Shown here piece after piece: positions 3,402 to 21,257 of a DNA stretch of 41,882 nucleotides (its first letter is position 1; each line of letters starts with the position of its first letter). The stretch is from IMG/VR virus record IMGVR_UViG_3300029331_000006; one strand, given 5' to 3'. The translations under genes were made by a program, and so were the position numbers. The DNA is from a virus. The notes beneath the pieces were generated by a model. The model saw only the letters and a list, made by a program, of their open reading frames with translations, ran no database searches and was not told where the DNA came from.

Positions 3402-4196
3402 CTAAGCGATCTGCTCCTGTTCCATTATCGGAAGTATACCCTCGCTCTTTAACAATGCATAAATAAACAATCTGCCTTTTTGTGTCCAATATGTATTTAC
3501 TTTAGAATGTTGCTTGCCGTCATTTCCGTTTACAGTATGCGTCTTTGTACTTGTGTAGCCTTTTTCAGCATATTCCTTATACAACAGCCATATCCCTCCT
3601 TGCTTAAACTGTATCTGGTGTTCTTTTAAGAAATTGTTTAACCATTTTGCCGACTTACCGTAATCCTTTGCTATGACAGTGACTGATAATAAATCGGGAC
3701 AATTTAAAACTAAATCATAATATGACGCCTTTGGTTGAAGTTCCATAATCTGCTGTTCTTGAACTTTAACAGTGGTGTTTAGTTTCTTATTTTTCTCTCG
3801 CTCCAATTTTAATGCCGTAAACGCCTGTATAGCCAAATCGGGATTTTCCAATAGTTCTTCGGTCGCATACATTCCTGTTTTGCGTATCGCCGGTAATACA
3901 TCAGCCGTAACCCAATGCTTAAACTTCTTCGCATTCGGCATTTTGCTTGATAGGATAAGACTGTACAAACCCGATTCATTGATACATACCGGATTTTGTT
4001 CTCTACCGATGGAGTCACGAATCGTTACCCCATCCGTTTTGTCATCTTCATCAACATGGTCCGCTAAAGCTTTGCGAGGATTGCTATACCCAAGTATTCC
4101 CGCCACATCCTTACCGACAAACATAATCTCTCCGTTTACTGTTGTTGTTCTTACAGAGCCGAACTCTGCATTTTCAAATACCTTTAATTCTTCCAT
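3402..4196 (-). CDS. antirepressor (Bro-N domain plus KilAC/ANT C-terminal domain)
   Basis: N-terminus FENAEFGSVRTTTVNGEIMFVGKDVAGILGYSNPRKA and C-terminus SVTVIAKDYGKSAKWLNNFLKEHQIQ, both typical of the family. Confidence 0.9.
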   Translation of the reverse strand: MEELKVFENAEFGSVRTTTVNGEIMFVGKDVAGILGYSNPRKALADHVDEDDKTDGVTIRDSIGREQNPVCINESGLYSLILSSKMPNAKKFKHWVTADVLPAIRKTGMYATEELLENPDLAIQAFTALKLEREKNKKLNTTVKVQEQQIMELQPKASYYDLVLNCPDLLSVTVIAKDYGKSAKWLNNFLKEHQIQFKQGGIWLLYKEYAEKGYTSTKTHTVNGNDGKQHSKVNTYWTQKGRLFIYALLKSEGILPIMEQEQIA

Positions 4197-4227: not shown

Positions 4228-4256
4228 TTGTATTTTTTAACCATTTGTGCTATAAT
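4228..4256 (+). promoter_or_regulatory. Extended -10 promoter for the plus-strand small gene
   Basis: TTGTAT (4228-4233), 17-nt spacer, TGcTATAAT (4248-4256). Confidence 0.5.
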
Positions 4257-4279
4257 CATCTCGGAAGGAGGTGATTATA

Positions 4280-4477
4280 ATGACAACAATATTTGTACAT
4301 TTCTTAGACTTAAAAATTAATAAGTCAATCGAATTTAATTATATCCCGCATATCGGAGAAAAGTTTTCACTGTCCGAAAACGGAGATATATACGTTGTAA
4401 AGGATATACTATACAATAATTTTTCTTGCCCATATAAAATTGAATTGTATGTATCAAAATCAACACTTAATAGCTAA
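4280..4477 (+). CDS. hypothetical protein on the strand opposite the early operon
   Basis: Strong RBS GGAAGGAGGTGA ahead of the ATG at 4280, and its own promoter. The 3' end overlaps the convergent gene by 4 nt. Confidence 0.6.
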   Translation: MTTIFVHFLDLKINKSIEFNYIPHIGEKFSLSENGDIYVVKDILYNNFSCPYKIELYVSKSTLNS

Positions 4478-4740
4478 CAGCTATATTGATACCCTTTTAC
4501 AAGTGGCTCCCACTGTGTTTGTTTGCTTACACTTACGGGAGCTATTCTTTTATAACCACCGTCACAATTATAATCGGCATTCTTATTTGAAATAATCTTA
4601 CTACTTCCTACATAGTAATAATCACCTGTATGACGATTTTGTGATACGTATAAACACAATGCTTTTTCTTCATCTGCATATATCACATGAAGAAGAATAC
4701 CGTTATCGAGCTTTATATACTCATCTTTCTTAAATTTCAT
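4474..4740 (-). CDS. hypothetical early protein
   Basis: Start ATG at 4740 (MKFKKDEY) after RBS AGGTGAG. Confidence 0.65.
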   Translation of the reverse strand: MKFKKDEYIKLDNGILLHVIYADEEKALCLYVSQNRHTGDYYYVGSSKIISNKNADYNCDGGYKRIAPVSVSKQTQWEPLVKGYQYSC

Positions 4741-4774
4741 AATTCTCACCTACTTTCTTATATTACCTATGCAT

Positions 4775-4792
4775 AGTTGCTTTTAGGAAACT
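4775..4792. promoter_or_regulatory. Distal operator-like site (AGTTGCTT-TT-AGGAAACT)
   Basis: 16 of 18 positions match site 5101-5118. Same half-site, AGGAAAC, as the switch-region sites. Confidence 0.4.
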
Positions 4793-4995
4793 AATTCAGC
4801 AAAAAAAATATTCATTATTTTTTCTTCATCTAATCCAAGAATAGACGCAATCTTTTGAATTTCTTCTTGCTTAAAGCTTGTTTCCCCTTTTAACCTGCTA
4901 TATAGGCATTTTTTTGATACACCCAATCTCTCTGCAAGTTGCGGTTTTGTTAAACCCTTTCTTGCAATTTCTGCATTTAAGTCGTCTATGTTCAT
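4783..4995 (-). CDS. Cro-like XRE-family HTH regulator
   Basis: 70 aa with HTH LTKPQLAERLGVSKKCLYSRLKG. Divergent from the CI gene. Confidence 0.85.
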   Translation of the reverse strand: MNIDDLNAEIARKGLTKPQLAERLGVSKKCLYSRLKGETSFKQEEIQKIASILGLDEEKIMNIFFAELVS

Positions 4996-5012
4996 TTTAT
5001 CACCTCTTTCTT

Positions 5013-5030
5013 TGTTTCCTTTAGGATACT
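5013..5030. promoter_or_regulatory. Operator palindrome TGTTTCCT-TT-AGGATACT
   Basis: Near-perfect dyad lying just downstream of the cro promoter -10 element. Confidence 0.5.
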
Positions 5031-5033
5031 TCT

Positions 5034-5062
5034 ATGATAGCATATAATTCTTACTCTGTCAA
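5034..5062 (-). promoter_or_regulatory. Early lytic promoter (cro direction)
   Basis: On the minus strand: TTGACA (5057-5062), 17-nt spacer, TGcTATCAT (-10 at 5034-5039). Confidence 0.6.
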
Positions 5063-5077
5063 CCCCTTTAGGAAACT
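5060..5077. promoter_or_regulatory. Operator half-site (TT-AGGAAACT) abutting the cro -35 element
   Basis: Exact AGGAAACT at 5070-5077. The left half is degenerate. Confidence 0.35.
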
Positions 5078-5100
5078 TTTTAAAACTTTTTTGAAAAAAT

Positions 5101-5118
5101 AGTTGCTTTTTTGAAACT
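5101..5118. promoter_or_regulatory. Operator-like site AGTTGCTT-TT-TTGAAACT overlapping the CI -35 element
   Basis: Sequence relative of 4775-4792 and 5013-5030. Confidence 0.4.
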
Positions 5119-5131
5119 GTTATGTTAATAT
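5103..5131 (+). promoter_or_regulatory. Promoter for the CI repressor gene
   Basis: TTGCTT (5103-5108), 17-nt spacer, TGtTAATAT (5123-5131). Confidence 0.5.
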
Positions 5132-5157
5132 GTATTTATAGAAAAGGGGTGTTTACA

Positions 5158-5787
5158 TTGGATATAGGAACAATTATAAGAAATAGACGTTTAGAACTTA
5201 ATTTAACCCTTGAGGAAATAGGAAATGCCGTTGGGGTTAGCAAAAGTACAGTTCAAAAGTGGGAGAATGGTTTTATATCTAATATGAAAAGAGATAAAAT
5301 CTCTGCATTAGCAAAGGTTTTAAATATTAATCCAGTTACTTTAATTACAGGTGAATATCCTGTTTCTCTACCAGAGGGAGCAGTACCATACAATCCTGTA
5401 ATGCACAGAATACCTATCTTAGGAGATATTGCGGCAGGATTACCGATATTTTCGGAAGAAAATTATGAGGGATATACTTATACAGAATTAAATCATGGTG
5501 GTAAATATTTTGCTTTAAAAGTAAAGGGCGATAGTATGACCGCCGCAAACATTCCCGACGGAAGTCTTGTAACTGTTCGTGTACAACCAACAGTTGAAAA
5601 CGGTGAAATTGCCGCTGTTCGTGTTAATCACGATACTTTTACGATAAAGCGCTTTAAGCAAGAAAAAAATATTGTCATGCTTATGCCTCAATCTTATAAC
5701 CCCGAACATCAAACACAAATTTATGACTTAAAACAAGACGATGTTGAGATAGTAGGAAAAGTAGTTGAATGTAAAGTCGGTTTTTAA
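5158..5787 (+). CDS. CI-type repressor, XRE HTH plus S24 (LexA-like) self-cleaving peptidase domain
   Basis: HTH LTLEEIGNAVGVSKSTVQKWENG, AAG cleavage-site motif (GDIAAGLP), and catalytic GDSM with a downstream K (TIKRFK). Start is likely the TTG at 5158 after AAAGGGG; the ORF-track ATG at 5122 lies inside the promoter. Confidence 0.9.
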   Translation: MDIGTIIRNRRLELNLTLEEIGNAVGVSKSTVQKWENGFISNMKRDKISALAKVLNINPVTLITGEYPVSLPEGAVPYNPVMHRIPILGDIAAGLPIFSEENYEGYTYTELNHGGKYFALKVKGDSMTAANIPDGSLVTVRVQPTVENGEIAAVRVNHDTFTIKRFKQEKNIVMLMPQSYNPEHQTQIYDLKQDDVEIVGKVVECKVGF

Positions 5788-5837
5788 TATTTATACAGAT
5801 TAACAAATTGTATTTTTTAGAAATATAAAACAAGGAA

Positions 5838-6167
5838 GTGATGATATTGAATGAATTAGAACAAATTCACAACCTAAGTAAAGCACACAAGATACAAATG
5901 ACAGACCACGCATTAAAACGAGCTAACGAACGTTCGATAGATATTCTTACCGATATACTTCCGGCATTAAAGCGATGCGAAATAATCGAAGAATATCCAA
6001 ATGATTATCCATACAAAAGCTTCCTCGTAATCGGTAAAACATCAAGCGAAAAATATATACACATAGTTTGTGCCATAGGAGAAGATGTTGTTTGGATAAT
6101 AACAGAATATTTCCCGAATAATATAGAATGGGAAAAAGACTTTAAAACAAGAAAGAAGGGTTTATAA
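5838..6167 (+). CDS. DUF4258-family protein (toxin-like), copy 1
   Basis: Motif pattern HALKRANERSI...IIEEYP...IHIVCA...VWIITEY. Start is ambiguous: GTG 5838, ATG 5841 or TTG 5847. Confidence 0.8.
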   Translation: MMILNELEQIHNLSKAHKIQMTDHALKRANERSIDILTDILPALKRCEIIEEYPNDYPYKSFLVIGKTSSEKYIHIVCAIGEDVVWIITEYFPNNIEWEKDFKTRKKGL

Positions 6168-6168
6168 A

Positions 6169-6396
6169 ATGAAATGTCTATTATGTAAATCAAGTACAGA
6201 AAATAAGCTTACAAATTATATTGCAGATTTGGGGAATTGCATTATTGTTATACACAACGTGCCTACTCAAGTATGTACACAATGTGGCGAAAAATCATAT
6301 TCATTCGACGTTTCTGTTCGTATTCAAGAATTGATAAACCAAGTGAAAAATATTGTTTCGGGTATTGCTGAATTGAATTATTCGGAAGTTGCTTGA
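6169..6396 (+). CDS. YgiT/MqsA-type zinc-finger protein (antitoxin-like, no HTH domain), copy 1
   Basis: MKCLLC...VPTQVCTQCGEKSYS, i.e. a CxxC...CxxC ribbon. Starts 1 nt after the DUF4258 stop. Confidence 0.8.
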   Translation: MKCLLCKSSTENKLTNYIADLGNCIIVIHNVPTQVCTQCGEKSYSFDVSVRIQELINQVKNIVSGIAELNYSEVA

Positions 6397-6408
6397 TGTT
6401 ATAAGGAA

Positions 6409-6822
6409 GTGATGATATTGGAAATAATAAAATATTACGGTAGTGATGAAACGAAAACCGAATTTATAAATCATGACAGTGAGCCATTAATGGCAGTAAT
6501 TGCACACGACCGCTCACACGCTGTTGTTTCGTTGCTTGACGAGGGTTGTGAACACCATTTATTATTGGCAAAGGCTCTCGACAAATATAATATAGATGAA
6601 TATTTTAGAATTATTTTTGATAACGAAGGTGCGGATTGGACTTTTGTATGCCCGCCTAATTACAAAAATATAACTAACAAAGAAAAACGTATAACGGAAT
6701 TTTTTAATGACGGTGTTGATGCTATAACCGAATTTCTGAAACAAATCGGTTATGACGTGCCTATTAACGTCCCAAGACGTTACCGCAGACATATGGACTA
6801 TTTGAAAAATTCAGAGTATTAA
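6409..6822 (+). CDS. hypothetical protein between the two DUF4258/ZnF pairs
   Basis: 137-aa ORF. Its initiation region is an exact 18-nt copy of the one at 5832-5849. Confidence 0.7.
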   Translation: MMILEIIKYYGSDETKTEFINHDSEPLMAVIAHDRSHAVVSLLDEGCEHHLLLAKALDKYNIDEYFRIIFDNEGADWTFVCPPNYKNITNKEKRITEFFNDGVDAITEFLKQIGYDVPINVPRRYRRHMDYLKNSEY

Positions 6823-6863
6823 AGGGGTTTTTATATATAAAATTAGAGAAACGTAAGTAAAAA

Positions 6864-7208
6864 TTGAAAGGATTGATAACAATTAACGATTTTCCATATA
6901 ATATAAACGATTTGAAAAATGCGTGTAAGAATAAAAAAATTATTTGGAAAGAACACGCTACTCAAAGGCTATTGCAAAGAAAAATATTAAGAGATGAAGT
7001 CATACAATGTGTTTTAAACGGCGAAATTATAGAAAATTATATAAGCGACAAACCTTTTGCAAGTTGTCTTGTATTCGGATATAGAGGTATTGACAAGCCG
7101 TTACACGTCGTATGTAGTTTTGACGACGAATATATCTATATTATAACAGCATATATTCCCGATACCATAAAATTTTATGATGATTTGAAAACAAGAAAGG
7201 AGAATTAA
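6864..7208 (+). CDS. DUF4258-family protein (toxin-like), copy 2
   Basis: HATQRLLQRKI...IIENY...LHVVCS...IYIITAY. Diverged paralog of 5838-6167. Start is uncertain because the RBS is weak. Confidence 0.75.
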   Translation: MKGLITINDFPYNINDLKNACKNKKIIWKEHATQRLLQRKILRDEVIQCVLNGEIIENYISDKPFASCLVFGYRGIDKPLHVVCSFDDEYIYIITAYIPDTIKFYDDLKTRKEN

Positions 7209-7210
7209 TT

Positions 7211-7441
7211 ATGAAATGTATCGAATGTGGTCATGACACTATTAACAAAAACAGAACATATGTTGCAAATCTTGAAAATTGCGTTATTATTATAAAAAAT
7301 GTTCCGGCTATGGTTTGTGAGCATTGCAACGAAGTTTATTATTCCGATGAAGTATTCGGGCAAATTGAAAAAATAGTATACAAACTCGAAAACATTATAA
7401 ATGATATTGCAGTTATTGACTATACAAATTCTGCCGCGTAA
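7211..7441 (+). CDS. YgiT/MqsA-type zinc-finger protein (antitoxin-like), copy 2
   Basis: MKCIECGH...VPAMVCEHCNEVYYS. Diverged paralog of 6169-6396. Confidence 0.8.
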   Translation: MKCIECGHDTINKNRTYVANLENCVIIIKNVPAMVCEHCNEVYYSDEVFGQIEKIVYKLENIINDIAVIDYTNSAA

Positions 7442-7561
7442 AAAATTCCCCTGCCTGTTGGAGCAGACAGAGGAAAAAGAATAAAGTGCATTTATACACA
7501 TATGTCACGCTCCCCACGGAGTGTGTGAGTTGAAATATAACACAAGAAAGGAAGATTTACG

Positions 7562-9040
7562 ATGAATGTAGCCCTGTATTTACGAAAATCGAGAGCGGAC
7601 GAAAACAATCCGCTTGAAACACTTGAACGTCACAAAGAAATTCTTCTTTCTTATGCAAAGGACAATAATTTAACGGTCATTGACATATTTGAAGAAGTGA
7701 TAAGCGGAGGAATGTTATACAACAGAACGGAAATGCTGAAACTGCTTGACGCTATTCCCTCGCACATATATGATGCGGTATTATGTATTGACCTTGACCG
7801 TTTAGGGCGCGGAAGTGCCGCAGACAGTGAAAAAATCTTTGACGTTCTTAAAGAAAATGACGTGAAAATTATTACACTCAAAAAAATATATGACCTCAAC
7901 AACGAGTACGACGAAGATTACAGTGAATTTGAGATGTTTATGGCTCGTAAGGAGCTTAAATTCATCACTCGCAGAATGAACAGAGGACGTATCAAATCAA
8001 TCAACGACGGTTGTTTTGTGTCGGGTGCTCCGTTTGGTTATCGAAATGCCGTAATAAATAAAAAGCACACGTTGGAAGTATATGAACCGGAGGCGAAATA
8101 TGTTCGTATGATATTTGATATGTATGTAAATCAAAGTATGGGTATTACTTCAATAAGCCGTCAGCTTGCAAATTTGGGTGTCTTGAGCAAGAAAAATACA
8201 CCGCTCCACCCCACCACAATCGCCCGTATGCTCCGAAATCATACTTACATAGGTAAAATAGTGTGGAACAAATCAAAGTCTGTTAAAGGCAAAAATACGC
8301 AAGAAAAAACGAGTAAAGATGATTGGTTATATGTTCCCGGACTGCACGAGCCGATAATTGACGAGAACACGTTCAATAAAGCACAAGATATTATAAATCT
8401 GAAATATAAACCGCCTATGCGTACAGGCACGTTGCAAAATCCGTTTGCAGGGCTTTTAAAGTGTGCTAATTGCGGTCGGGCAATAGTTATCAATACTTCT
8501 AACGAAACCGTTGAAAAATACCGTCTTTGTTGCCGTACACTTGGTTGTAATAAAGCCTCTGCATTAAGTATTGTAGAAGATAAGGTATTTGAAGTGCTTA
8601 CAAAGGAATTTAAAGATATTGAATTGTCTTTAAAAAATATCCGTCAATCGCATAATAAGGATAAACTTTCTTGTCTTGATACAATAGCCACTTTGGAAAC
8701 AGAATTAAAAAAACTTGATAAACAACAACTCCGCCTGTATGACTTGCTTGAACAGGCAGTGTATACAAAGGAACTTTTTCTTGAACGCAATAACGCAATT
8801 TCGGATAGACGAAAGAAAATTAATGCCACGATAGCACAGGAACGCGAAAAATTTAAACTTGTAGATACTTCTTCCATCGAAGAACGCCTCCCCCTTTTGC
8901 GTGAACTTCTCACCAATTACAACTCTCTTTCAGCCGCTGAAAAAAATTCTATTCTTAAAAATTTTGTGAAAAAAATTGAATATAAACGTGAAAAATCCGC
9001 TCCCGAGGGCGATATTTTCTTAAAAATCTATTATAAATAA
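7562..9040 (+). CDS. large serine recombinase (integrase)
   Basis: 492 aa. N-terminal resolvase-type domain (ALYLRKSRADE), recombinase domain, zinc ribbon (CANCGRAIV...CC) and a C-terminal coiled coil. Confidence 0.92.
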   Translation: MNVALYLRKSRADENNPLETLERHKEILLSYAKDNNLTVIDIFEEVISGGMLYNRTEMLKLLDAIPSHIYDAVLCIDLDRLGRGSAADSEKIFDVLKENDVKIITLKKIYDLNNEYDEDYSEFEMFMARKELKFITRRMNRGRIKSINDGCFVSGAPFGYRNAVINKKHTLEVYEPEAKYVRMIFDMYVNQSMGITSISRQLANLGVLSKKNTPLHPTTIARMLRNHTYIGKIVWNKSKSVKGKNTQEKTSKDDWLYVPGLHEPIIDENTFNKAQDIINLKYKPPMRTGTLQNPFAGLLKCANCGRAIVINTSNETVEKYRLCCRTLGCNKASALSIVEDKVFEVLTKEFKDIELSLKNIRQSHNKDKLSCLDTIATLETELKKLDKQQLRLYDLLEQAVYTKELFLERNNAISDRRKKINATIAQEREKFKLVDTSSIEERLPLLRELLTNYNSLSAAEKNSILKNFVKKIEYKREKSAPEGDIFLKIYYK

Positions 9041-9058
9041 CTTTTTACCCACCTTATG

Positions 9059-9096
9059 TATCTTGTTGCCATAGCTGTATAGATAACAACAAGATA
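9059..9096. other. Candidate attP core (10-bp inverted arms around an 18-bp centre)
   Basis: TATCTTGTTG ... CAACAAGATA. No T-run follows, so it is not a typical terminator. Lies between the integrase 3' end and the lysis side of the genome. Confidence 0.3.
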
Positions 9097-9103
9097 CCCA
9101 ACC

Positions 9104-9140
9104 AAAAAAGAACATAAGTATTTTGCCTATGTTCTTTTCT
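9104..9140. terminator. Bidirectional intrinsic terminator
   Basis: AAAAGAACATA / TATGTTCTTTT 11-bp stem with an A-run before it and a T-run after it. Sits between convergent genes. Confidence 0.7.
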
Positions 9141-9155
9141 AATTATATACACATA

Positions 9156-9509
9156 CTATTTATCACGAACTTCAAAAATTAAATCTCCTGGCTTTATATG
9201 CTCTGTATTTTTATCATTTTTTGATATTATATGTATTTGGGGTTGACTCTCTATTGCTTTTTCAGTTTCTGATATTCTTTTTACTAATTCCCTAAGTTCT
9301 TCTTGTGTTGTTTCTTTTGTGAGTTTTATTATAGCGTATGAATCCAATCCATTATGTATAATTTGAGCTTGTTGTATGTTTGAATCTTTTACTTGTTGTA
9401 TCTTGTTTGAATTAGCTACCATAATGCATTTAATTCCTATACCGCCTAAAACCACCCCACAAATTCCGACTATACTATTAATAATTCCTATTACATCTGA
9501 AATGCTCAT
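9156..9509 (-). CDS. N-terminally membrane-anchored hypothetical protein (moron)
   Basis: TM segment VIGIINSIVGICGVVLGGIGI. Has its own promoter and terminator; RBS AAAGGGGAA. Confidence 0.75.
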   Translation of the reverse strand: MSISDVIGIINSIVGICGVVLGGIGIKCIMVANSNKIQQVKDSNIQQAQIIHNGLDSYAIIKLTKETTQEELRELVKRISETEKAIESQPQIHIISKNDKNTEHIKPGDLIFEVRDK

Positions 9510-9625: not shown

Positions 9626-10417
9626 CTACTTATTATACATACCACATCTGTGCTCACGACAAATTGTCCTTAAATCTTTGTAGGATAAACCTAAACGACC
9701 TTGCTCATCTCCAACTAATGCACCGTAATCCATAGCCGCTTGCACGGCTTTTCTTGCCCAATCGGGCATATTGTCGTCCACATAATCGTAAATCATTGTT
9801 GTTTGTACTACAGCGACCAACTGTCTGTTGACATCTTGTAAATCAGCGATTTTTGCCGCTTGTGCGTTAATTAAATCTTTTAGTTCATTGTACTGTGACA
9901 TAGTTAAATCCTCACTTCCTGTTAATCTTTTCTTAAAATTATCCCACAGCTCCGGCTGACGTACAAAAGGTTCGGGACACTTCTTGTCCCACACATCATA
10001 GTGTCGTAATACGTTTTCTACCGGCACACCGTATTTATTCATCAAATACCGTGTTAATTTAATTGTCTGTTCCACAATCCCGTCACGAATATAGTATTTA
10101 CCGTCCGCACCGATACGACTACACATTTCAATCGAAATACTGTTCATATTCCTGCAATACGGGTGTTTGTAATTTTTTGTACCACCGACAGCCCACGCCG
10201 CCCATTTATCGGGTACAGATTGATATATACCGTCATCACCGATAAAATAATGTGCAGACGCACCACGATTTGCACCGCTGAAATAATTGCAGTTGTTCAA
10301 TGCCGTATCGCCGTTATTTGACGTAAAATGAATGACGATATATTTAATATCGCCATTCCTGTATGTGTAGCAATTAGACGTGTGGCACTGCGGACCCTGT
10401 TTGATTTGAATATCCAT
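9626..10417 (-). CDS. endolysin, N-acetylmuramoyl-L-alanine amidase (Amidase_2/PGRP type) with a C-terminal binding module
   Basis: IVIHFTSN, ASAHYFIGDDG, SISIEMC and RHYDVWDKKCP motifs. The C-terminus is shared with the tail protein at 20424-21257. Confidence 0.92.
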   Translation of the reverse strand: MDIQIKQGPQCHTSNCYTYRNGDIKYIVIHFTSNNGDTALNNCNYFSGANRGASAHYFIGDDGIYQSVPDKWAAWAVGGTKNYKHPYCRNMNSISIEMCSRIGADGKYYIRDGIVEQTIKLTRYLMNKYGVPVENVLRHYDVWDKKCPEPFVRQPELWDNFKKRLTGSEDLTMSQYNELKDLINAQAAKIADLQDVNRQLVAVVQTTMIYDYVDDNMPDWARKAVQAAMDYGALVGDEQGRLGLSYKDLRTICREHRCGMYNK

Positions 10418-15286: not shown

Positions 15287-15554
15287 TCTCCGTCACCCCC
15301 AACACCAAATATCTGTTATTGCCTCTGTACGGAATCATTGCAACTTCTCTGCCTTTATAAACATATCGTCCGTCAATATCCTGTTTGTATAAATCAATAA
15401 GACTTTTTATATGGTCCTTAGTCAGAATTATTTTAGAGGTGAATTGTATTTTAAGGTTCGGTAGCTCAATTATTTTACCGAATACGACAAAATCACTCGT
15501 TGCGTTTTCACGGTCCTTAAACATCTTTGCAAGTGTTTCGACTCCGTTTTTCAT
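15279..15554 (-). CDS. XkdR-like small baseplate protein (DUF2577)
   Basis: 91 aa; assigned by synteny. Confidence 0.72.
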   Translation of the reverse strand: MKNGVETLAKMFKDRENATSDFVVFGKIIELPNLKIQFTSKIILTKDHIKSLIDLYKQDIDGRYVYKGREVAMIPYRGNNRYLVLGVTENG

Positions 15555-17476
15555 ACTAATCTCTCCATATCAATTTTATTGTAGTGAACACCGTTTTTTA
15601 TACTGTGCTGACTGCTTGTAATCACATATTTAACACCGTCTTTTTCTATCGTACTTCCGGCTCGTGTATAGCTTGTCAGCTCCTCGATTATTTCACCGGA
15701 ATACGTTTCATCTTCCTTATTCAGCTCGCCAAGATTTTTCTTTGCCAAGTCCGACGCATTATCTCCGTCATTCATTTTTACCACTTCTTGCAGAAAGCCG
15801 TATTTTGATATACTCTCCTCGGCTTTCAGGGTAGTCATAACGTCCGTATCGGTTATCACCTTAACACTGTTCTTCATATTCTCAATACTGCCTTTATGCT
15901 CAATATTACCCATATACTGTACTGAGTTTTTGAGTTCGGTATTCGGCGATATTCTAAACTTCGGCTCGACCGACATATCACTGCACAAATATATACGCAT
16001 ACCGTCGGGTACAAAGTCAAAGTTATACCCACTTCCGCACTTTTCAAGAATATCCTTGATAACGTCCGATATGGGCTTGTCGATATATATTTGAGTTATA
16101 AGCGTACTCAATTCGGGAATAAGCACAATCGGAATGTATAAATCGTTGCATATTTTCTTTATGCAGTCATCGGCTCGCATAGATGTAAACTGATATGTGT
16201 CGGTGGTTTTGTTCAGATACCACCCTACATCAACGGCAGTATATTTGTTTTCATACATTGCTCCGTCGTCAACCTCGATTATTACACCTCTGAAATCTTC
16301 TTTATCTCCTCCGCTGTACCTCATAATATCGCCCATTTTTGGTATGTATATATTCATATACTTCATTTCTTTAGGTTTCGGAGTGCTGAAAGACATCGTT
16401 GTCGCAAGTGTATTTTTTGTATTTGTCCACGATATATCTCCTATATGCTTTGATACGTCTGTATCATTTACCACTACTTTCAAAGCACCGTCTAACAGCA
16501 TAGGTGCTTGTTTGAAAATCGAATTGTGGATAGGTATTTTTTCGTTGGTATCCGCAAAATGATATTCTTTTTCACCGGATGTACTTCCTGTACTTCCGTA
16601 TGTCGGCTCTGTATCGCTTGTCCAAATTCTCACAACACGGGCAGAGCGGTTAATCCCCTCCGACTCTAATGCAGATGTGAATTTTTCATTGCCTGTTACA
16701 ACATTTCCGTCAATGATAAACTCCGTCATATTTGCATCACTGCCTGTGTGATACATATGTCGGCTGTCGGTTTCGCTGTCTTTCTTTTCGTCACCTTTGA
16801 CTGCGTATATCACTTTACCGTCGTCAAATTCAATCTTAACAAACGTGCCGTCCGGTCCGTAATACGAACCGAGTGCCATACAAATAAAATCTTTGTACTT
16901 TCGCAATCCGCCGTTTGACGTACTGCTGTCACTGCCCCACAAGTATTTATATCCGCTTGCTTGACTGTTCGTATATGTTTGATATGCCATATATGATTTA
17001 GTTGCGAGCGACTTTCCTATGTTCGGTATTTCTCTCTCAACCCAGTTTGCAATATAACCGCCTCCGTCTTTGGTATATCTGAGTACACAGTCCCACGGAT
17101 AATTTCTGTAAGGCACATTGGTAACAATACCGAATGATGTTCCTCTTGCCTCAACTGTTGTTCCGCCGTCCGCCTGTACCAAAGCGGTATGGTCTGCTTT
17201 ATTTAAAAGCACATCACCTTTTAACATACCTGCTCCGTTTGACAGATTACAGGATGACGTTACGTCTTTAAATCCACACGAAATAAAAACGTTATACATA
17301 TCCCCCGTATATGTAGCACCATTATCTTTAACAGGCACTCCCGCATTTTGATACGCTGTTATAACAAAAGAAGAACAATCATAATGCGGTCCCCATCTCA
17401 CGTCTTGACTGTACCAATGACTATCGTCATTTGCAATATCTATCGCCCATTGAACTGCATTATCAATTACACCCAT
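15551..17476 (-). CDS. baseplate hub protein (XkdQ / late-control-D-like) fused to an N-terminal NlpC/P60-CHAP-like cysteine peptidase
   Basis: N-terminus has HYDCSSFV (catalytic Cys) and ADHTALV (His). The C-terminal half is XkdQ-like by position and size. Confidence 0.85.
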   Translation of the reverse strand: MGVIDNAVQWAIDIANDDSHWYSQDVRWGPHYDCSSFVITAYQNAGVPVKDNGATYTGDMYNVFISCGFKDVTSSCNLSNGAGMLKGDVLLNKADHTALVQADGGTTVEARGTSFGIVTNVPYRNYPWDCVLRYTKDGGGYIANWVEREIPNIGKSLATKSYMAYQTYTNSQASGYKYLWGSDSSTSNGGLRKYKDFICMALGSYYGPDGTFVKIEFDDGKVIYAVKGDEKKDSETDSRHMYHTGSDANMTEFIIDGNVVTGNEKFTSALESEGINRSARVVRIWTSDTEPTYGSTGSTSGEKEYHFADTNEKIPIHNSIFKQAPMLLDGALKVVVNDTDVSKHIGDISWTNTKNTLATTMSFSTPKPKEMKYMNIYIPKMGDIMRYSGGDKEDFRGVIIEVDDGAMYENKYTAVDVGWYLNKTTDTYQFTSMRADDCIKKICNDLYIPIVLIPELSTLITQIYIDKPISDVIKDILEKCGSGYNFDFVPDGMRIYLCSDMSVEPKFRISPNTELKNSVQYMGNIEHKGSIENMKNSVKVITDTDVMTTLKAEESISKYGFLQEVVKMNDGDNASDLAKKNLGELNKEDETYSGEIIEELTSYTRAGSTIEKDGVKYVITSSQHSIKNGVHYNKIDMERLV

Positions 17477-17567
17477 ATAAACCTCCTTTTAAACTTTTGT
17501 ATACTTTTTTCACTATCTTACTATGGTGGTATTCGTCTGCACATCATGTCACCTCATTTTATTGCAT

Positions 17568-17593
17568 AGAAAAAGCACCCCGAAAGGTGCTTT
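17568..17593 (-). terminator. Intrinsic terminator closing the inserted island
   Basis: On the minus strand: GCACCU-UUCG-GGGUGC (UUCG tetraloop) followed by TTTTTCT. Lies 10 nt after the 54-aa ORF stop. Confidence 0.7.
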
Positions 17594-17603
17594 AATGCTA
17601 TAA

Positions 17604-17768
17604 TCATATACAATTTTCAAAAACTATATGTACCTTAGCCTTTTTATCTTTATCCAACATAAAGCTATAACCTCTTGATACATCAAGACCATTTTCATCT
17701 TGTAAAATCGGCATAGCACAATCAACGCATTTAGTTATATACTTAATTATATCTTCTCTACTTAACAT
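17604..17768 (-). CDS. hypothetical small protein (54 aa, below the ORF-track cutoff)
   Basis: Hand translation begins MLSREDIIKYITKCVDCAMPILQDENGLDVSRGYSF and continues to 54 aa. The RBS GGAGGG overlaps the stop of the Bro-N gene. Confidence 0.5.
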   Translation of the reverse strand: MLSREDIIKYITKCVDCAMPILQDENGLDVSRGYSFMLDKDKKAKVHIVFENCI

Positions 17769-17780
17769 CACAATTCCCTC

Positions 17781-18563
17781 CTATGCCGTTTTAACAGTCT
17801 TGCCTAAAATCTTGCCTAAAGCTTGTACACCTTTTTCATTGTATAAAAACTGTTGTACTTCTTTAGAACTATGTTTTGACTTACTCATAACCATTTTACC
17901 GTATGTATCATTTTTAAGTCCGCTTGCATTTGCAGTCTTGCCAATTTTCATAGCCGATACACCGAACATTCCACCGACTTCCGTTGCTGAATAAAGCTTT
18001 TCACATTCGGGTAAATACTGGTTCATATTCTTACCCGTTATCTGCTCCACCGCCTTAATACCCATAACATCAATCGCAATCTGTGATAAGTTTTTGTCCT
18101 TAGTGTTCGATAAAAGCGTTTTTATCATACGATTTTGAGCGTTAAGTAACATTGCGGTGGCTCTATCACGTTTTGCTTGTAATTCAATTTCTTTTAAGCG
18201 GTCTGTTGCGATATTAACCGTTTCGCCTTTGCGCAATGATTTCAGTAACTTTCTTACCCACGCTCTGAACTCTTTTGCTTTTTCGGTTTTAGCGAGAAAT
18301 GTAACTTCATATATGCCGTCTTCTGTGAAAACTCTTGTTTTTCTCTGTCCTGCTTCCGAAGTCAAAATGACTTCGGAAGAAAATTCTTCACTTTTTAAAT
18401 AACCATTTCTTGAAACAATCTTATTGATACTTTCTCGTGGACTTGCATATTGTAAGCATTTACCGAGTTGTTCACTTGTCATAAACATATCTTGATTGTC
18501 TGAGTACACATCACATTGTACCTCTCCGAATTGTGCTGATTTTACAATCTGTAAATTATTCAT
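17781..18563 (-). CDS. Bro-N domain protein (second antirepressor-like protein)
   Basis: N-terminus FGEVQCDVYSDNQDMFMTSEQLGKCLQYASPRESINKIV ... IYEVTFLAKTEKAKEFRAWV. The C-terminal domain differs from the KilAC domain of 3402-4196. Confidence 0.85.
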   Translation of the reverse strand: MNNLQIVKSAQFGEVQCDVYSDNQDMFMTSEQLGKCLQYASPRESINKIVSRNGYLKSEEFSSEVILTSEAGQRKTRVFTEDGIYEVTFLAKTEKAKEFRAWVRKLLKSLRKGETVNIATDRLKEIELQAKRDRATAMLLNAQNRMIKTLLSNTKDKNLSQIAIDVMGIKAVEQITGKNMNQYLPECEKLYSATEVGGMFGVSAMKIGKTANASGLKNDTYGKMVMSKSKHSSKEVQQFLYNEKGVQALGKILGKTVKTA

Positions 18564-18588
18564 TAAACTTCTCCTCTCAAATTTTGCT

Positions 18589-18617
18589 TTGACAAGAGTT
18601 TCAATCTATGATATAAT
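18589..18617 (+). promoter_or_regulatory. Consensus promoter firing antisense to the XRE-to-Bro leader
   Basis: TTGACA (18589-18594), 17-nt spacer, TGaTATAAT (18609-18617). Confidence 0.65.
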
Positions 18618-18623
18618 ATCTTG

Positions 18624-18691
18624 TAGACGGAAACGTCTTGTACTGATAACGATAACGATTGCTTTGGTTGGCGTGTTATCGTTATTTTTTT
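18624..18691 (+). ncRNA. Predicted small antisense RNA of about 68 nt (sar-like)
   Basis: Starts about 7 nt after the -10 element. Contains an AGACG-GAAA-CGTCT hairpin, then a perfect 11-bp stem (ATAACGATAAC / GTTATCGTTAT, 18-nt loop) followed by T7. No RBS or usable ORF. Confidence 0.45.
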
Positions 18692-18779
18692 GTTTCTTTG
18701 GCATTGTTCTGTGGCATACTATAATGACACAAGTCAGCAAAACACCAAGTCGTCCTATCTTTTTGCAACTCATTCATAC

Positions 18780-18989
18780 TTAGTTTTCCTCCTTTTCAAT
18801 GAAATCTGTAATCGGTCTGCCTAATGCCTCTGCAAGCTTTCGTATGGTTGCAGCTTGCGGTCTTTTAATTTTTTGCTTTTCAAGTAACGATATTTGATTT
18901 GCCGTAATTTTAGCCTTATACGACAACTCATTCATTGACAAGCCTTGTTCCATACGATATTCTCTTAGTTTTTTTGTTGTATATCCCAC
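18780..18989 (-). CDS. XRE-family HTH protein (Cro-like) of the island
   Basis: HTH LSMNELSYKAKITANQISLLEKQ. Start is likely the GTG at 18989 after GGAGGTG; the ORF track starts at 19007. Confidence 0.85.
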   Translation of the reverse strand: MGYTTKKLREYRMEQGLSMNELSYKAKITANQISLLEKQKIKRPQAATIRKLAEALGRPITDFIEKEEN

Positions 18990-19012
18990 ATTTTCACCTC
19001 CTGACATTTTAG

Positions 19013-19041
19013 ATTATACTACTTTAAAAGTAATAAGTCAA
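19013..19041 (-). promoter_or_regulatory. Consensus promoter for the island XRE / Bro-N operon
   Basis: On the minus strand: TTGACT (19036-19041), 17-nt spacer, TATAAT (19013-19018). Confidence 0.65.
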
Positions 19042-19048
19042 TACTTTT

Positions 19049-19076
19049 TTATCAATTATATTTATTTTATTGATAA
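19049..19076. promoter_or_regulatory. Inverted repeat operator candidate between the divergent promoters
   Basis: TTATCAAT, 12 nt, ATTGATAA. The right arm overlaps the plus-strand -35 element. Confidence 0.45.
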
Positions 19077-19098
19077 TATACGTTATTTATGTTATAAT
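19070..19098 (+). promoter_or_regulatory. Consensus promoter for the 133-aa XRE repressor-like gene
   Basis: TTGATA (19070-19075), 17-nt spacer, TGtTATAAT (19090-19098). Confidence 0.7.
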
Positions 19099-19142
19099 TA
19101 AGTTAATAATAAAATAATTTTATCACTTAGGAGGTGCAAATA

Positions 19143-19544
19143 ATGTCAACTTTTGCTGATAACTTAAAATTTTTATTAAAATATAAAGGTGATACCCAAA
19201 GTCAACTGGCTAAAGAATTAGATTTAACCACTGCCTCAGTATCTCGATATTGTTCGGGTGAGCAAATTCCAAGAATCGATGTTTTGGATAAAATTGCAGA
19301 CTATTTTGCGGTTGATGTATCGGATTTATTCGCTGAAGATACCATTGATAAGTTAAAAAGCGGCGAATTTCAAATTATATATGGCGAACCGATTAATATA
19401 CCTTTAGACCAAATTCCAGTAAAATACAAGCTATTTAAAGAAATAGAAAATCTTTCAAATGCAGAATTACAACGAGTACATCAATACATCCAATTTTTGA
19501 AATATATGCGTAACAAATCCGATACGTCAAAAGATAACGTCTAA
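19143..19544 (+). CDS. XRE-family HTH protein with a C-terminal extension (repressor-like, no S24 domain)
   Basis: HTH TQSQLAKELDLTTASVSRYCSGEQIP. ATG at 19143 after AGGAGGTG. Confidence 0.85.
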   Translation: MSTFADNLKFLLKYKGDTQSQLAKELDLTTASVSRYCSGEQIPRIDVLDKIADYFAVDVSDLFAEDTIDKLKSGEFQIIYGEPINIPLDQIPVKYKLFKEIENLSNAELQRVHQYIQFLKYMRNKSDTSKDNV

Positions 19545-19583
19545 CTTTTTATAAATTCGTATCAAAATATATCTGAAAACACT

Positions 19584-19621
19584 AACCACGTGAATAATAT
19601 TCACGTGGTTTATTCGTTTTT
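19584..19621 (+). terminator. Intrinsic terminator: 27-bp perfect palindrome plus T-tract
   Basis: AACCACGTGAATA-A-TATTCACGTGGTT followed by TATTCGTTTTT. Confidence 0.7.
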
Positions 19622-19625
19622 CTTT

Positions 19626-19652
19626 AACTACTTCGATAATATCGAAGTAGTT
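19626..19652. repeat. 27-bp perfect palindrome with no T-run on either strand
   Basis: AACTACTTCGATA-A-TATCGAAGTAGTT. Its arms match 9 of 13 positions with the neighbouring palindrome. Confidence 0.6.
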
Positions 19653-19662
19653 AGCCAACACA

Positions 19663-19689
19663 AAAGACACCCCATAATGAGGTGTCTTT
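19663..19689. terminator. Hairpin terminator overlapping the stop of the 116-aa RHH gene
   Basis: AAAGACACC-ccataatga-GGTGTCTTT. T-rich on the plus side, TGTGTT on the minus side. Confidence 0.55.
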
Positions 19690-20038
19690 ATTTTTCATTT
19701 TTGTTGTCCGAGACAATTTGCTCCACTATTTGATTGATGCCTTTATTAATTATTTCATATATTTCATCTGTCGTTTTTGGCTTGTAATCCGCTTTATTGA
19801 CATCTATTTTCAAAACTCTATTATCATTATCAGAATGAATTTTCTCTACACTTTCTGTAGTTTTAAAATTGATATTGACAGGCTCATCGCTTGATACATA
19901 AAACTTAATAAATCTTTCAATCACATCTTGGATAGATGTATTTTCTTTTACCGTTTTCAATTTAAGTTTTGCATGAACATCATCAGACAACCTAATTACT
20001 ACTTGTTTAATATCCTCGCCCCCCTTTCGTGCTATCAT
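19688..20038 (-). CDS. ribbon-helix-helix (Arc/MetJ-like) protein with a C-terminal extension
   Basis: N-terminus KQVVIRLSDDVHAKLKLKTVKENTSIQDVIERFIKFY. The ORF-track ATG lies inside the predicted -10 hexamer, so the true start is probably downstream of the AAAGGGGGG RBS. Confidence 0.7.
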   Translation of the reverse strand: MIARKGGEDIKQVVIRLSDDVHAKLKLKTVKENTSIQDVIERFIKFYVSSDEPVNINFKTTESVEKIHSDNDNRVLKIDVNKADYKPKTTDEIYEIINKGINQIVEQIVSDNKNEK

Positions 20039-20065
20039 AATATCATACTATCAAGATAGTGTCAA
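20037..20065 (-). promoter_or_regulatory. Consensus promoter with an internal palindromic operator (116-aa RHH gene)
   Basis: On the minus strand: TTGACA (20060-20065), 17-nt spacer holding ACTATC-TT-GATAGT, then TATTAT (20037-20042). Confidence 0.6.
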
Positions 20066-20073
20066 GAGCTTTT

Positions 20074-20247
20074 TTATTTTTTGTCTAAGTTTTCTTTTAC
20101 CAACTCAATTCCTTTATGGATAACTTGGGCTTTGGATAAGTTGAGCCTTTCCGCACATTCTTCAAGTGTTGAATATGTTTCAGATGTCAGCCGTATTTCA
20201 AAGCGTTTATCTTTCTTGGCTTGGGTAGGTCTACCTTTTGGGGACAC
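20074..20247 (-). CDS. ribbon-helix-helix protein (57 aa, below the ORF-track cutoff)
   Basis: Hand translation gives MSPKGRPTQAKKDKRFEIRLTSETYSTLEECAERLNLSKAQVIHKGIELVKENLDKK. GTG start 8 nt after AAGGAAGGAGG. Confidence 0.65.
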   Translation of the reverse strand: MSPKGRPTQAKKDKRFEIRLTSETYSTLEECAERLNLSKAQVIHKGIELVKENLDKK

Positions 20248-20280
20248 TTGCAAAACCTCCTTCCTTATGTCCGTACATAT

Positions 20281-20309
20281 ATAATAACATAAGTACGTAC
20301 AAAAGTCAA
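20281..20309 (-). promoter_or_regulatory. Consensus promoter for the 57-aa RHH gene
   Basis: On the minus strand: TTGACT (20304-20309), 17-nt spacer holding GTACGTAC, then TATTAT (20281-20286). Shares AAAAAGCTCTTGAC with the promoter at 20037-20065. Confidence 0.6.
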
Positions 20310-20320
20310 GAGCTTTTTCT

Positions 20321-20351
20321 AAAAAAAGTACATCGAAATTCGATGTACTTT
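20321..20351 (-). terminator. Strong intrinsic terminator after the XkdP-position tail gene
   Basis: On the minus strand: AAAGTACATCGAA-T-TTCGATGTACTTT, a perfect palindrome running into TTTTTTT. Confidence 0.75.
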
Positions 20352-20423
20352 CTAAGCCTTATTTGAAATTTTTAATTTGTCTTTTGTTTTATTATATCAC
20401 AAAAGGAAAATATTGCAACATTT

Positions 20424-21257
20424 TTAATCACCGAAACAACCTGCATTATCCATAATAACAAGCAAACGTATCATACTCTTTGTCAAACCGTATCCGTCCT
20501 CGCCGTCACCGTTTAGATAGCCTTTTCTTTTTACCTTTTCAATAGTCGCCTCTGCCCATGACGGCATAATGTCAACCGTATAATTTTCAAATCCGTCTGT
20601 TTTGTCAATAATAACAAGTGTACGAATAATATCCATTGTAAGACCGAGTTCATTATCGTCTGTACCGCTTATAATACCTCTGTCCATCAACTTTTGAATA
20701 GTCGGTTTAGCCCAAGACGGCATATTATCGTCCATATAGTTATATATCATCGTGTTTTCAACACTGCTAAGCCTTTCTTCTATATTATCAATTCTCGCCA
20801 TTATTTCATCATACTGCGCCACTGTCAACCCCTCCTGTACATCGTTTAAAAGATTTACTTCTCCAAGCTCGATTGAATAATTCAAATCACCGCCTGTACC
20901 TACGCTGTAATCAAACTTATCTATTGCCGCCGCTGTATTTATATCAACATTGCAAATACCCGTGGAAGTAATGACAAGCCTTATCGGAAGTTTACGTTTA
21001 CGCCAATTTTCAATCTTGTCTGCGTATTCCTGCCCTTTCATACTTCTGTCCCTTAAATACGGATAGTCGGTCATCGGTAAGAAACTGCTCCACGATACAG
21101 TTTTAAGTTCGGGATTTCCGATAATTTTTATCCAACCGTAATTTGCCGTTTCAAAAGTTTCCGTACCTTGTGAACTCGATACGGTAAATTCGGACGGCGT
21201 GACGGGAATATGTATAACTTCTTCACTGTTGTTTATACTTAAATAAAAATCTAACAT
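20424..21257 (-). CDS. tail protein in the XkdP position with two C-terminal repeats homologous to the endolysin C-terminus
   Basis: Lies directly after the tape measure gene. C-terminus has MIYNYMDDNMPSWAKPTIQKLMDRGIISG and YTVDIMPSWAEATIEKVKRKGYLNG. Confidence 0.8.
   Translation of the reverse strand: MLDFYLSINNSEEVIHIPVTPSEFTVSSSQGTETFETANYGWIKIIGNPELKTVSWSSFLPMTDYPYLRDRSMKGQEYADKIENWRKRKLPIRLVITSTGICNVDINTAAAIDKFDYSVGTGGDLNYSIELGEVNLLNDVQEGLTVAQYDEIMARIDNIEERLSSVENTMIYNYMDDNMPSWAKPTIQKLMDRGIISGTDDNELGLTMDIIRTLVIIDKTDGFENYTVDIMPSWAEATIEKVKRKGYLNGDGEDGYGLTKSMIRLLVIMDNAGCFGD

Follow-up and report, generated by a model that had tools for sequence, protein, structure and literature searches.

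In plasmid copy control, pMV158 pairs a CopG-type ribbon-helix-helix (RHH) repressor with an antisense RNA (RNAII). In phages, the ant moron of P22 is a hypervariable insert in the late operon that holds mnt, arc, sar, ant and sieA (PMC2629481), and pairs of Xre and Bro genes are already on record as a mobile module that turns up repeatedly (Makarova, Wolf and Koonin 2009; PMC2701414). The locus dealt with here is a cassette of small regulatory genes lying between two tail genes of a temperate phage, the window being the whole 41,882-nucleotide (nt) stretch of IMG/VR record IMGVR_UViG_3300029331_000006, a complete 41.9-kb temperate myovirus genome with a contractile-tail module. At a probability put at roughly 0.45, the cassette is a moron-type, horizontally exchanged and gated antirepressor-type module, a functional analogue of the P22 ant moron or immI region. 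The island itself is real, and this interpretation of it is reasonable, if unproven.

An A+T-rich insert of about 2.9 kb (17568-20321), with a G+C fraction of 0.28-0.33 as against 0.39-0.42 in the flanks, separates the gene for an XkdP-like protein (20424-21257) from that for an XkdQ-like tail protein (15551-17476). Island and flanking proteins were mapped onto each of 64 IMG/VR loci encoding the XkdP-like protein, and the occupancy of the hotspot was counted in the 31 loci whose flanks are 97-100% identical. The site is empty, with 127 nt between the genes, in 12 of the 31; an 871-nt insert encoding a 248-amino acid (aa) secreted Cu_amine_oxidN1-like protein is present in another 12, regulatory cassettes of 1.9-3.05 kb, in reshuffled versions, in six, and one is ambiguous. 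Relatives that are only about 67% identical have a 95-nt gap between the two genes in nearly all cases (L049 and L050 being ambiguous), and the genes are adjacent in Monoglobales phage CHVD 5762 too. With the flanking tail genes neighbours in the 12 empty sites and in these more distant phages, the initial annotation was right to suspect an insertion or hotspot. The cassette is absent from syntenic close relatives, has its own promoters and terminator and deviates in base composition, features that by sequence would make it a moron, and, as with P22 immI and its ant moron, its position is hypervariable among relatives and lies in the late operon beside tail genes. A satellite or integrative element was considered and rejected, the insert being without an integrase, a replication gene or a target-site duplication.

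The insert starts at about 20321, directly past an intrinsic terminator (20325-20351), and ends just before the ribosome-binding site of the XkdQ-like gene. That terminator had been described as opening the island. It is native, as is the promoter-like site upstream of it, because both occur in the empty sites of relatives. The picture of an island bracketed by two strong terminators is accordingly correct in that both fold well, but not in counting this one as part of the insert. The closing terminator does accompany the cassette, with 80-83% identity over 17541-17600 in siphovirus copies L071 and L072. In the empty site the promoter-like site and the terminator are about 60 nt apart (20325-20418; L002 8832-8958), and in L018 (8832-9702) the gene for the 248-aa secreted protein sits exactly between them, for which reason the empty site may be the scar of a secreted-protein moron; it may otherwise be the source of a tiny transcript.

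Alignment of the variants divides the cassette into exchangeable modules (Table 1). At the recombination breakpoint at 18167, a Bro-N domain is exchanged for a Rha domain on the same C-terminal domain, a kind of swapping typical of antirepressor-type proteins. The XRE pair is present in some variants and absent from others. Where it is absent, the second RHH gene directly precedes a gene with a Rha N-terminal domain (Pfam, 3.6e-27) and the same C-terminal domain, so that the order in these sister alleles is RHH, RHH, antisense RNA and Rha/Bro-type gene. Movement between phages is evident from a 250-aa Rha-type protein that is identical in the hotspot of the myovirus and in an unrelated siphovirus, where it belongs to the tail module. 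There the order is tape-measure protein (TMP), Dit, Tal, the Cu_amine_oxidN1 protein, a 118-aa open reading frame (ORF) and a divergent XRE pair, after which come an optional Bro-N-only gene, the Rha/Bro protein, orf90 or orf54, and a fibre gene. Related siphovirus-type copies (L071-L074 and L103) have XRE pairs that are different alleles. A further contig, L141 (ENA ERZ1303602 NODE_42; 4307-9281), joins myovirus TMP, XkdP, RHH, RHH, Rha and orf90 to siphovirus fibre, XkdX, holin and amidase genes and skips the baseplate genes; it may be a chimera that arose in assembly through the shared cassette, or else a genuine recombinant of the two prophages.

The presumed effector is a 260-aa protein that matches Bro-N in Pfam (E 7e-11) and 'anti-repressor' families in PHROGs (6.7e-28), in keeping with its original designation as the product of a Bro-N antirepressor-like gene; antirepressor activity is its candidate function. 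A search found 655 homologues of it, and those at 41-52% identity are mostly found right after a divergent CI-like repressor, heading the early operon before Exo and SSAP genes, which by gene order is the canonical position of an antirepressor. Bro-N is all that Pfam finds in the protein, the P22_AR_N and P22_AR_C domains of P22 Ant being absent, and its AlphaFold2 model has a pLDDT of 83. In other variants the position of the coupled orf54 is taken by an unrelated 90-aa ORF, orf90. No family match was found for orf54 in Pfam, PHROGs, PADLOC or NCBIfam. The orf90 product (L016, L007) has a C-terminal motif, GF[IL][ML]GFxYAM[RK][IL]MQE, in common with a 91-aa protein of L174, L184 and L226, whose gene comes first after the antisense-RNA promoter in modules that include an antirepressor gene of the ORF6N type, and this suggests that an orf90-like protein is a small partner recurring with antirepressor-type genes.

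All six ORFs and all five promoters first proposed for the island were recovered. The start codons chosen (for the products of 57, 69, 133 and 54 aa) suit ribosome-binding sites better than do those of the longest ORFs, and the promoters have 10-12 of the 12 bases of the sigma-70 consensus. Of ten sites in the whole window with a match of at least 11/12, six fall in the island, which is 6.8% of the sequence (binomial P = 1.7e-5). Two extra 11/12 promoter-like sites, at 18698-18725 (+) and 19797-19824 (+), would be antisense into XRE69 and RHH116, respectively, the former not being kept in L072. Minus-strand late transcripts cross three intrinsic terminators and two opposing consensus promoters (17477-20351) before the baseplate genes, and the sole late regulator seen in the phage is ArpU-like and not an antiterminator. 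The RHH-promoter palindromes and the XRE inverted repeat each occur only once in the window. Wiring across to the primary switch was looked for and rejected: the CI/Cro motif TTTAGGAWAC occurs only at 4781, 5019 and 5066, and the island operators nowhere else in the window. From its own promoters and separate candidate operators, the island would, as first supposed, be transcriptionally autonomous of the primary CI/Cro switch.

Nearest to the Bro-type gene in regulatory terms is a divergent pair of XRE genes. Both products have an HTH_3 domain, and the expected inverted repeat, TTATCAAT-N12-ATTGATAA, was located between the two promoters (19049-19076), overlapping the -35 element of the plus promoter. 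XRE133 also matches an RstR-family repressor at 1e-12, which is under that family's threshold, and unrelated XRE alleles take its place where the cassette occurs in siphoviruses. XRE69 has a homologue of 69 aa and 83% identity at the same position in L071. XRE69 and the Bro-type gene are on the same strand, 216 nt apart, with no sense promoter or terminator between them.

That 216-nt interval has a perfect-consensus promoter pointing the other way, the fifth and antisense promoter of the earlier description, which drives a predicted RNA of about 70 nt. The fold of the RNA (-23.1 kcal/mol, z = -4.4) includes, as its second stem-loop, a 13-bp terminator hairpin with the loop CUUUGGUUGG and then a U-run. 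The Rha-type cassette, L103 and L116 have a consensus promoter at the equivalent place, 12/12 in the Rha and L103 types, and an RNA of the same shape, in which the loop is kept while the stems differ (CUUUGGU(U/C)GG in the Rha type, CUUUGAUGG in L103 and CUUUGCAAGG in L116). For a covariance model built from the window RNA the best non-self match is the Rha-type RNA at 28 bits, with the L116 copy at 23 bits (a match in L129 at 21.8 bits was not counted). In the resulting alignment, which is fitted to the model and represents about three independent lineages, pairing is kept in 96% of pair cells and compensatory changes are seen at 11 of the 18 pairs, slid controls reaching at most 59% paired.

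The nearest Rfam family is ctRNA_pT181 (RF00242), which the window copy matches at 32.6 bits and the L180 variant at 37.6 bits, both short of the 56-bit cut-off, and none of 15 loci yielded a match to it at the gathering threshold. The pT181-type loop motif ACUUUGGU is nevertheless present in the terminator hairpin and is kept in about 37 different stems. When IMG/VR was searched for a consensus promoter plus the loop motif, with the reversed motif as control, at least 119 loci matched; a hairpin of at least 7 bp around the motif followed by a T-tail is present in at least 103 (103/119 matches), as against 0/18 for the control. Of 23 distinct first ORFs scanned behind such RNA promoters, four encode Bro-N, two ORF6N and one AntA (one of them also with KilAC/ANT), the Bro- and Rha-type genes of the cassette being additional to this tally; genes related to orf90 and to the first RHH gene are found there too.

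The leader of the Bro-type gene folds into a hairpin that pairs the Shine-Dalgarno sequence, and the 5′ arm of this hairpin is the complement of the -35 hexamer of the antisense promoter. When 32 distinct leaders of other family members were folded, about a dozen of them had the same sequestering design, CUUCUGUCAA...UUGAUAGGAG. The antisense RNA is complementary to the leader upstream of the hairpin and ends about 60 nt before the start codon; it may act via pairing, RNA cleavage or promoter collision. The family of antisense RNAs together with the coupled leader hairpin is the most novel element of the cassette.

At the other end of the insert are the two tandem RHH genes, each with a promoter carrying a different palindrome, as had been noted at the outset. 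The palindromes are present. The assignment of both proteins comes from weak profile matches (Arc-like, CopG and ParG) and is strengthened for the 57-aa protein by a homologue, 42% identical to it, that scores above the threshold of Pfam RHH_1. The first gene exists as two alleles of about 30% identity, each with its own inverted repeat over its own -10 element; the repeat of the window's allele is perfect in L016 (GTCCGTACATAT-N8-ATATGTACGGAC), and L003 and L007 have the other allele with a different repeat. Such an allele-specific repeat is, judged from sequence, what marks a repressor that regulates itself through its own operator. Homologues of RHH57 lie upstream of Bro-type genes in the unrelated phages L099, L116 and L168, and RHH116 is confined to this lineage, only relatives of at least 85% identity being found among 5.8 billion proteins. 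The two palindromes between XRE133 and RHH116 are 27-29 bp long, 71% alike and 42 bp apart; that at 19584-19610, followed by a T-run, probably terminates XRE133, and that at 19625-19653 has a T-run on neither side. Since a terminator and a convergent gene separate the RHH genes from it, the Bro operon of this allele would be under the control of the XRE pair and of the antisense RNA and not of the RHH genes.

Table 1. Coordinates of the features discussed, numbered from the first letter of the window; z is the folding z-score
Feature	Position	Strand	Remarks
Antirepressor-type protein, 260 aa	17781-18563	-	Bro-N (about residues 1-110) plus conserved C-terminal domain without a Pfam family
orf54, 54 aa	17604-17768	-	Translationally coupled to the Bro-type gene
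Antisense promoter	18589-18617	+	TTGACA-17-TGnTATAAT, 12/12; 26 nt upstream of the Bro start codon, facing away
Predicted cis-antisense RNA, about 70 nt	18623-18691	+	Stem-loop 1, 18625-18638; terminator stem-loop 2, 18645-18686
Bro-leader hairpin	18564-18606	-	Pairs the Shine-Dalgarno sequence: CUCUUGUCAAAG...UUUGAGAGGAG
XRE69, 69 aa	18780-18989	-	HTH_3, 6e-10; first gene of the Bro operon, Cro-like position
XRE133, 133-aa repressor	19143-19544	+	HTH_3, 3.8e-11; divergent from the Bro operon
Divergent XRE promoters	19013-19098		Minus, 19041-19013; plus, 19070-19098
RHH promoter 1	20269-20309	-	-35, 20309-20304; -10, 20286-20281; overlapping candidate inverted-repeat operator, 20269-20280 + 20289-20300
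RHH57, 57 aa, CopG/Arc type	20074-20247	-	phrog_876, 9e-14; two alleles in the population
RHH promoter 2	20037-20065	-	Palindrome ACTATCTTGATAGT (20047-20060) in spacer; invariant across all variants
RHH116, 116 aa	19688-20038	-	C-terminal extension of about 65 aa; weak Arc-like, ParG and VapB matches
Terminator of the RHH transcript	19663-19689		-15.9 kcal/mol, z = -4.5; overlaps the RHH116 stop codon
Two related perfect palindromes	19584-19610, 19625-19653		Between convergent XRE133 and RHH116
Predicted promoters of the island	20309-20281, 20065-20037, 19041-19013	-	
Predicted promoters of the island	19070-19098, 18589-18617	+	The latter 12/12
Native promoter-like site	20391-20418	-	TTGCAA-16-TATAAT; just past the XkdP-like stop codon; present in empty site L002
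Native intrinsic terminator	20325-20351	-	-16.4 kcal/mol, z = -5.2; 99% identical in empty sites
Cassette-closing terminator	17568-17593	-	-14.5 kcal/mol, z = -4.1
Module	20321-19685		Two RHH genes; breakpoints here and below from variant alignment
Module	19685-18167		XRE pair, antisense RNA, Bro-N domain
Module	18167-17760		Constant C-terminal domain
Module	17760-17610		orf54, or unrelated 90-aa ORF in other variants
Module	17610-17477		Terminator
CI with S24 domain	5122-5787		Primary switch
Cro	4783-4995		Primary switch
Canonical antirepressor, Bro-N + KilAC	3402-4196		Primary switch region
Serine integrase	7562-9040		
ArpU-like (ArpU/RinA-type) late activator	35147-35548		
Early/replication genes			Exo, SSAP, helicases, DNA polymerase
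Further modules			Terminase, head genes, contractile tail, lysis genes

If the cassette is a gated antirepressor-type module, its working may be pictured as follows. XRE133 would be the maintenance repressor of the cassette, holding down the XRE69-Bro-orf54 operon via the operator at 19049-19076 in an arrangement like that of CI and Cro. The antisense RNA transcribed from the Bro leader would be a second gate, upstream of a ribosome-binding site that is itself sequestered, and the two autoregulated RHH genes upstream would add a third layer, one that in sister alleles lies directly before the Rha-type gene. On entry into a cell without the repressors and the RNA, or upon their loss, there would be a short burst of Bro-type protein, and its synthesis would be shut off as repressors and antisense RNA build up. 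During the burst the protein would either inactivate the repressor of this prophage, or of a co-resident one, or displace it, with anti-immunity or cross-induction as the outcome. Antirepressor activity and its target, binding of the repressors to the operators and the lowering of Bro expression by the RNA are each presumed in this scheme. The expression 'second immunity region' likewise stays an inference, as it presupposes that the 260-aa protein would act on the CI repressor.

Several findings weigh against the scheme. From the perspective of the effector, KilAC/ANT (PF03374), present in the phage's own canonical antirepressor, is absent from the 260-aa protein, and the two are 19% identical. 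A structure-based function for the C-terminal domain was sought and given up, since there was no PDB match at E < 0.01 and the BFVD matches were via Bro-N. The protein may instead be a transcription factor or a sensor, because Bro-N and a helix-turn-helix-like part of the C-terminal domain could both bind DNA. With regard to targets, no operator sequence is common to the cassette and the primary CI/Cro region, no RHH targets beyond the genes' own promoters are visible in this allele, and in the only two IMG/VR contigs that allowed the comparison, one with an empty site and one with a Rha cassette, cassette state did not follow the CI allele, the 74%-identity one being present in both, although two contigs are too small a sample for a conclusion. 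As to the RNA, the ribosome-binding site lies outside the region it is complementary to, in contrast to P22 sar, and no attenuator terminator is visible between its target and the start codon, unlike in pT181. Conservation of the RNA region in L071-L074 was entertained as a sign of constraint and dismissed, the identity profile being a recombination mosaic; near-100% identity of the region in close variants reflects recent recombination and not constraint, and the case for the RNA therefore rests on the sequence-divergent versions.

Other accounts of the cassette deserve consideration. It could be a prophage defence or superinfection-exclusion module in which the Bro-N/Rha protein, with or without orf54 or orf90, senses or blocks phages and the regulators restrain a toxic effector. 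The alleles and N-domain swaps suggest diversification in an arms race, and the company is apt: the hotspot also hosts a secreted surface-type protein, which adjoins the cassette in the siphovirus, much as sieA lies by P22 immI (PMC2629481). The N-terminal domain, moreover, matches the PADLOC candidates PDC-S05 and PDC-S23 (2e-07 to 1e-06), but these matches cover only the generic Bro-N (residues 1-145), no named family, including BstA, is matched, and Pfam finds no KilA-N domain, so that the BstA-like role put forward initially as an alternative finds no support in these searches. Known prophage defence genes of this kind are constitutively expressed, whereas the Bro-type gene has a sequestered ribosome-binding site and is gated by an antisense RNA and a pair of repressors in the proposed scheme; its homologues, too, mostly head early lytic operons beside CI, which is atypical for defence. 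The defence account is judged unlikely. An addiction module resembling a toxin-antitoxin system, with a growth-inhibitory Bro-type protein neutralised by XRE69/XRE133 and/or the antisense RNA, is distinctly improbable. Xre-Bro is listed as a mobile toxin-antitoxin-like two-gene module, and some Ant-domain proteins are toxic, but the same authors judged Xre-Bro likelier to be regulatory than a true toxin-antitoxin (PMC2701414). The cassette is highly mobile between phages and its strong, constitutive-looking antisense promoter recalls RNA antitoxins, yet scans with Pfam, PADLOC and NCBIfam revealed no toxin-type domain, and the Rha-type gene persists in sister alleles without the XRE pair. A type I toxin was ruled out because the only candidate, a 55-aa ORF with a hydrophobic N-terminus (18606-18773) whose 3′ end is overlapped by the RNA, loses conservation beyond the RNA terminator in L071-L074.

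The arrangement of small autorepressor genes with small ORFs also resembles known anti-CRISPR loci. An anti-defence locus of the acr-aca type would have orf54, orf90 or the C-terminal extension of RHH116 inhibit host immunity in an early burst ended by autorepression, and both the strong promoters with candidate operators for small RHH and helix-turn-helix autorepressors inside a structural operon, and the alternation of the downstream small ORF between unrelated alleles, are in line with this. However, similarity to known inhibitors was not found in Pfam, PHROGs, PADLOC or NCBIfam, and the core conserved across phages is the Bro/Rha protein plus the RNA and not the small ORFs, which makes such a role very improbable. 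There is even less to be said for a modulator of tail-gene expression, in which the amount of late transcription arriving at the baseplate genes would be governed mainly by the repressors, the terminators and the convergent promoters. The terminators and opposing promoters that precede the XkdQ-like gene would serve it, as would a late regulator that is an activator-like protein of the ArpU/RinA type rather than an antiterminator. But the same cassette is at a different junction (Tal-fibre) in siphoviruses, so that an effect on the tail genes is more likely a side effect than the function, and the cassette is dispensable for tail assembly because near-identical phages do without it. None of the rivals has more than context in its favour, and tests against known families bore out neither BstA nor a type I toxin-antitoxin.

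Elsewhere in the window the canonical switch of CI (S24), Cro and antirepressor that was reported at the start is confirmed in all three members by domain assignments. The host is probably Hominilimicola, a gut Clostridia genus, since the exact XkdP-like protein appears in public sources named as including Hominilimicola sp.; the identical sequence is on at least 1000 contigs. The closest deposited phage, CHVD 5762, has an XkdP-like protein of 45% identity, and a prophage search of GTDB representative genomes did not find a close relative. The XkdP-like protein has SLH-like C-terminal repeats in place of LysM, of a PHROG family common with the C-terminus of the endolysin (9626-10417), and the XkdQ-like hub protein has an NlpC/P60 or endolysin-like N-terminal domain. 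Between CI and the integrase two tandem pairs (5838-6396 and 6864-7441), each with a gene for a DUF4258 protein (109 and 114 aa) ahead of one for a CxxC...CxxC protein of about 75 aa, look like two toxin-antitoxin-type accessory modules. A 68-aa ORF (4229-4477, +) with a strong ribosome-binding site, an extended -10 promoter and no family match diverges from just upstream of the canonical antirepressor gene.

A bolder, rather doubtful extension of the antirepressor-type reading would be that the antisense RNA founds an undescribed and widespread pT181-like family that, with the Shine-Dalgarno hairpin, gates Bro-N, Rha, ORF6N and AntA genes in Firmicutes phages, as part of a portable 'burst-then-silence' cassette in which RHH and XRE repressors are interchangeable and which unrelated prophages within a single gut bacterium trade to break one another's immunity or to co-induce. 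If the cassette is what it is taken to be, the logic of P22 immI, long seen as a peculiarity of P22-like phages, has an independently assembled counterpart in abundant prophages of human-gut Clostridia. The natural variants in one backbone (empty site, secreted-protein gene and cassette alleles) would be a ready comparison for lysogeny, cross-induction and phage competition, and a compact predicted antisense RNA, diverse in sequence and conserved in structure, escapes current RNA-family annotation.

The parallel with P22 immI, drawn initially from the mix of regulators, is sound as regards the location in the late operon and, in sister alleles, the order of RHH genes, RNA and payload, but not as regards the payload, which is not a homologue of P22 Ant. 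Both are hypervariable inserts in a late operon beside tail genes, independently transcribed (by prediction in the cassette), with many alleles in syntenic phages. Both have small RHH repressors with operators over promoters and a cis-antisense RNA between a repressor and an Ant-type gene (all of these predicted or putative in the cassette) and, in the same variable region, a gene of surface or exclusion type; the sister-allele order RHH-RHH-RNA-Rha/Bro mirrors arc-sar-ant. The cassette differs in belonging to a contractile-tail phage of a Gram-positive Clostridia host, in having Bro-N or Rha with a novel C-terminal domain in place of P22_AR_N/C, and, in this allele, in having a CI/Cro-like XRE pair instead of Mnt/Arc as the direct controller. 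Its RNA would pair upstream of the ribosome-binding site and resembles the pT181 countertranscript and not sar.

Likeness to the pT181 countertranscript extends to the two stem-loops, the terminator-hairpin loop ACUUUGGU(C/U)(A/G)G and the encoding in the leader, opposite to the controlled gene. The score is short of the family cut-off (32.6-37.6 versus 56 bits), a phage regulator is controlled rather than a replication initiator, and there is a Shine-Dalgarno-sequestering leader hairpin with no visible attenuator terminator. The order in sister alleles of RHH autorepressor, antisense RNA and controlled gene is also that of CopG and RNAII in pMV158. With the Bro-N/AntA/ORF6N + KilAC antirepressors of phages of Gram-positive bacteria the cassette protein has in common the family of N-terminal domains and their shuffling, and its homologues sit at the same post-cro position in other phages; its C-terminal domain is another, uncharacterised one, and its gene has been moved to the tail module with a switch of its own. 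Like the Xre-Bro module, finally, the cassette has an Xre-type helix-turn-helix gene beside a Bro-N gene in one operon and is mobile and sporadic, but here the pair is one part of a bigger assemblage that also includes RHH genes, an antisense RNA and another XRE gene in divergent orientation.

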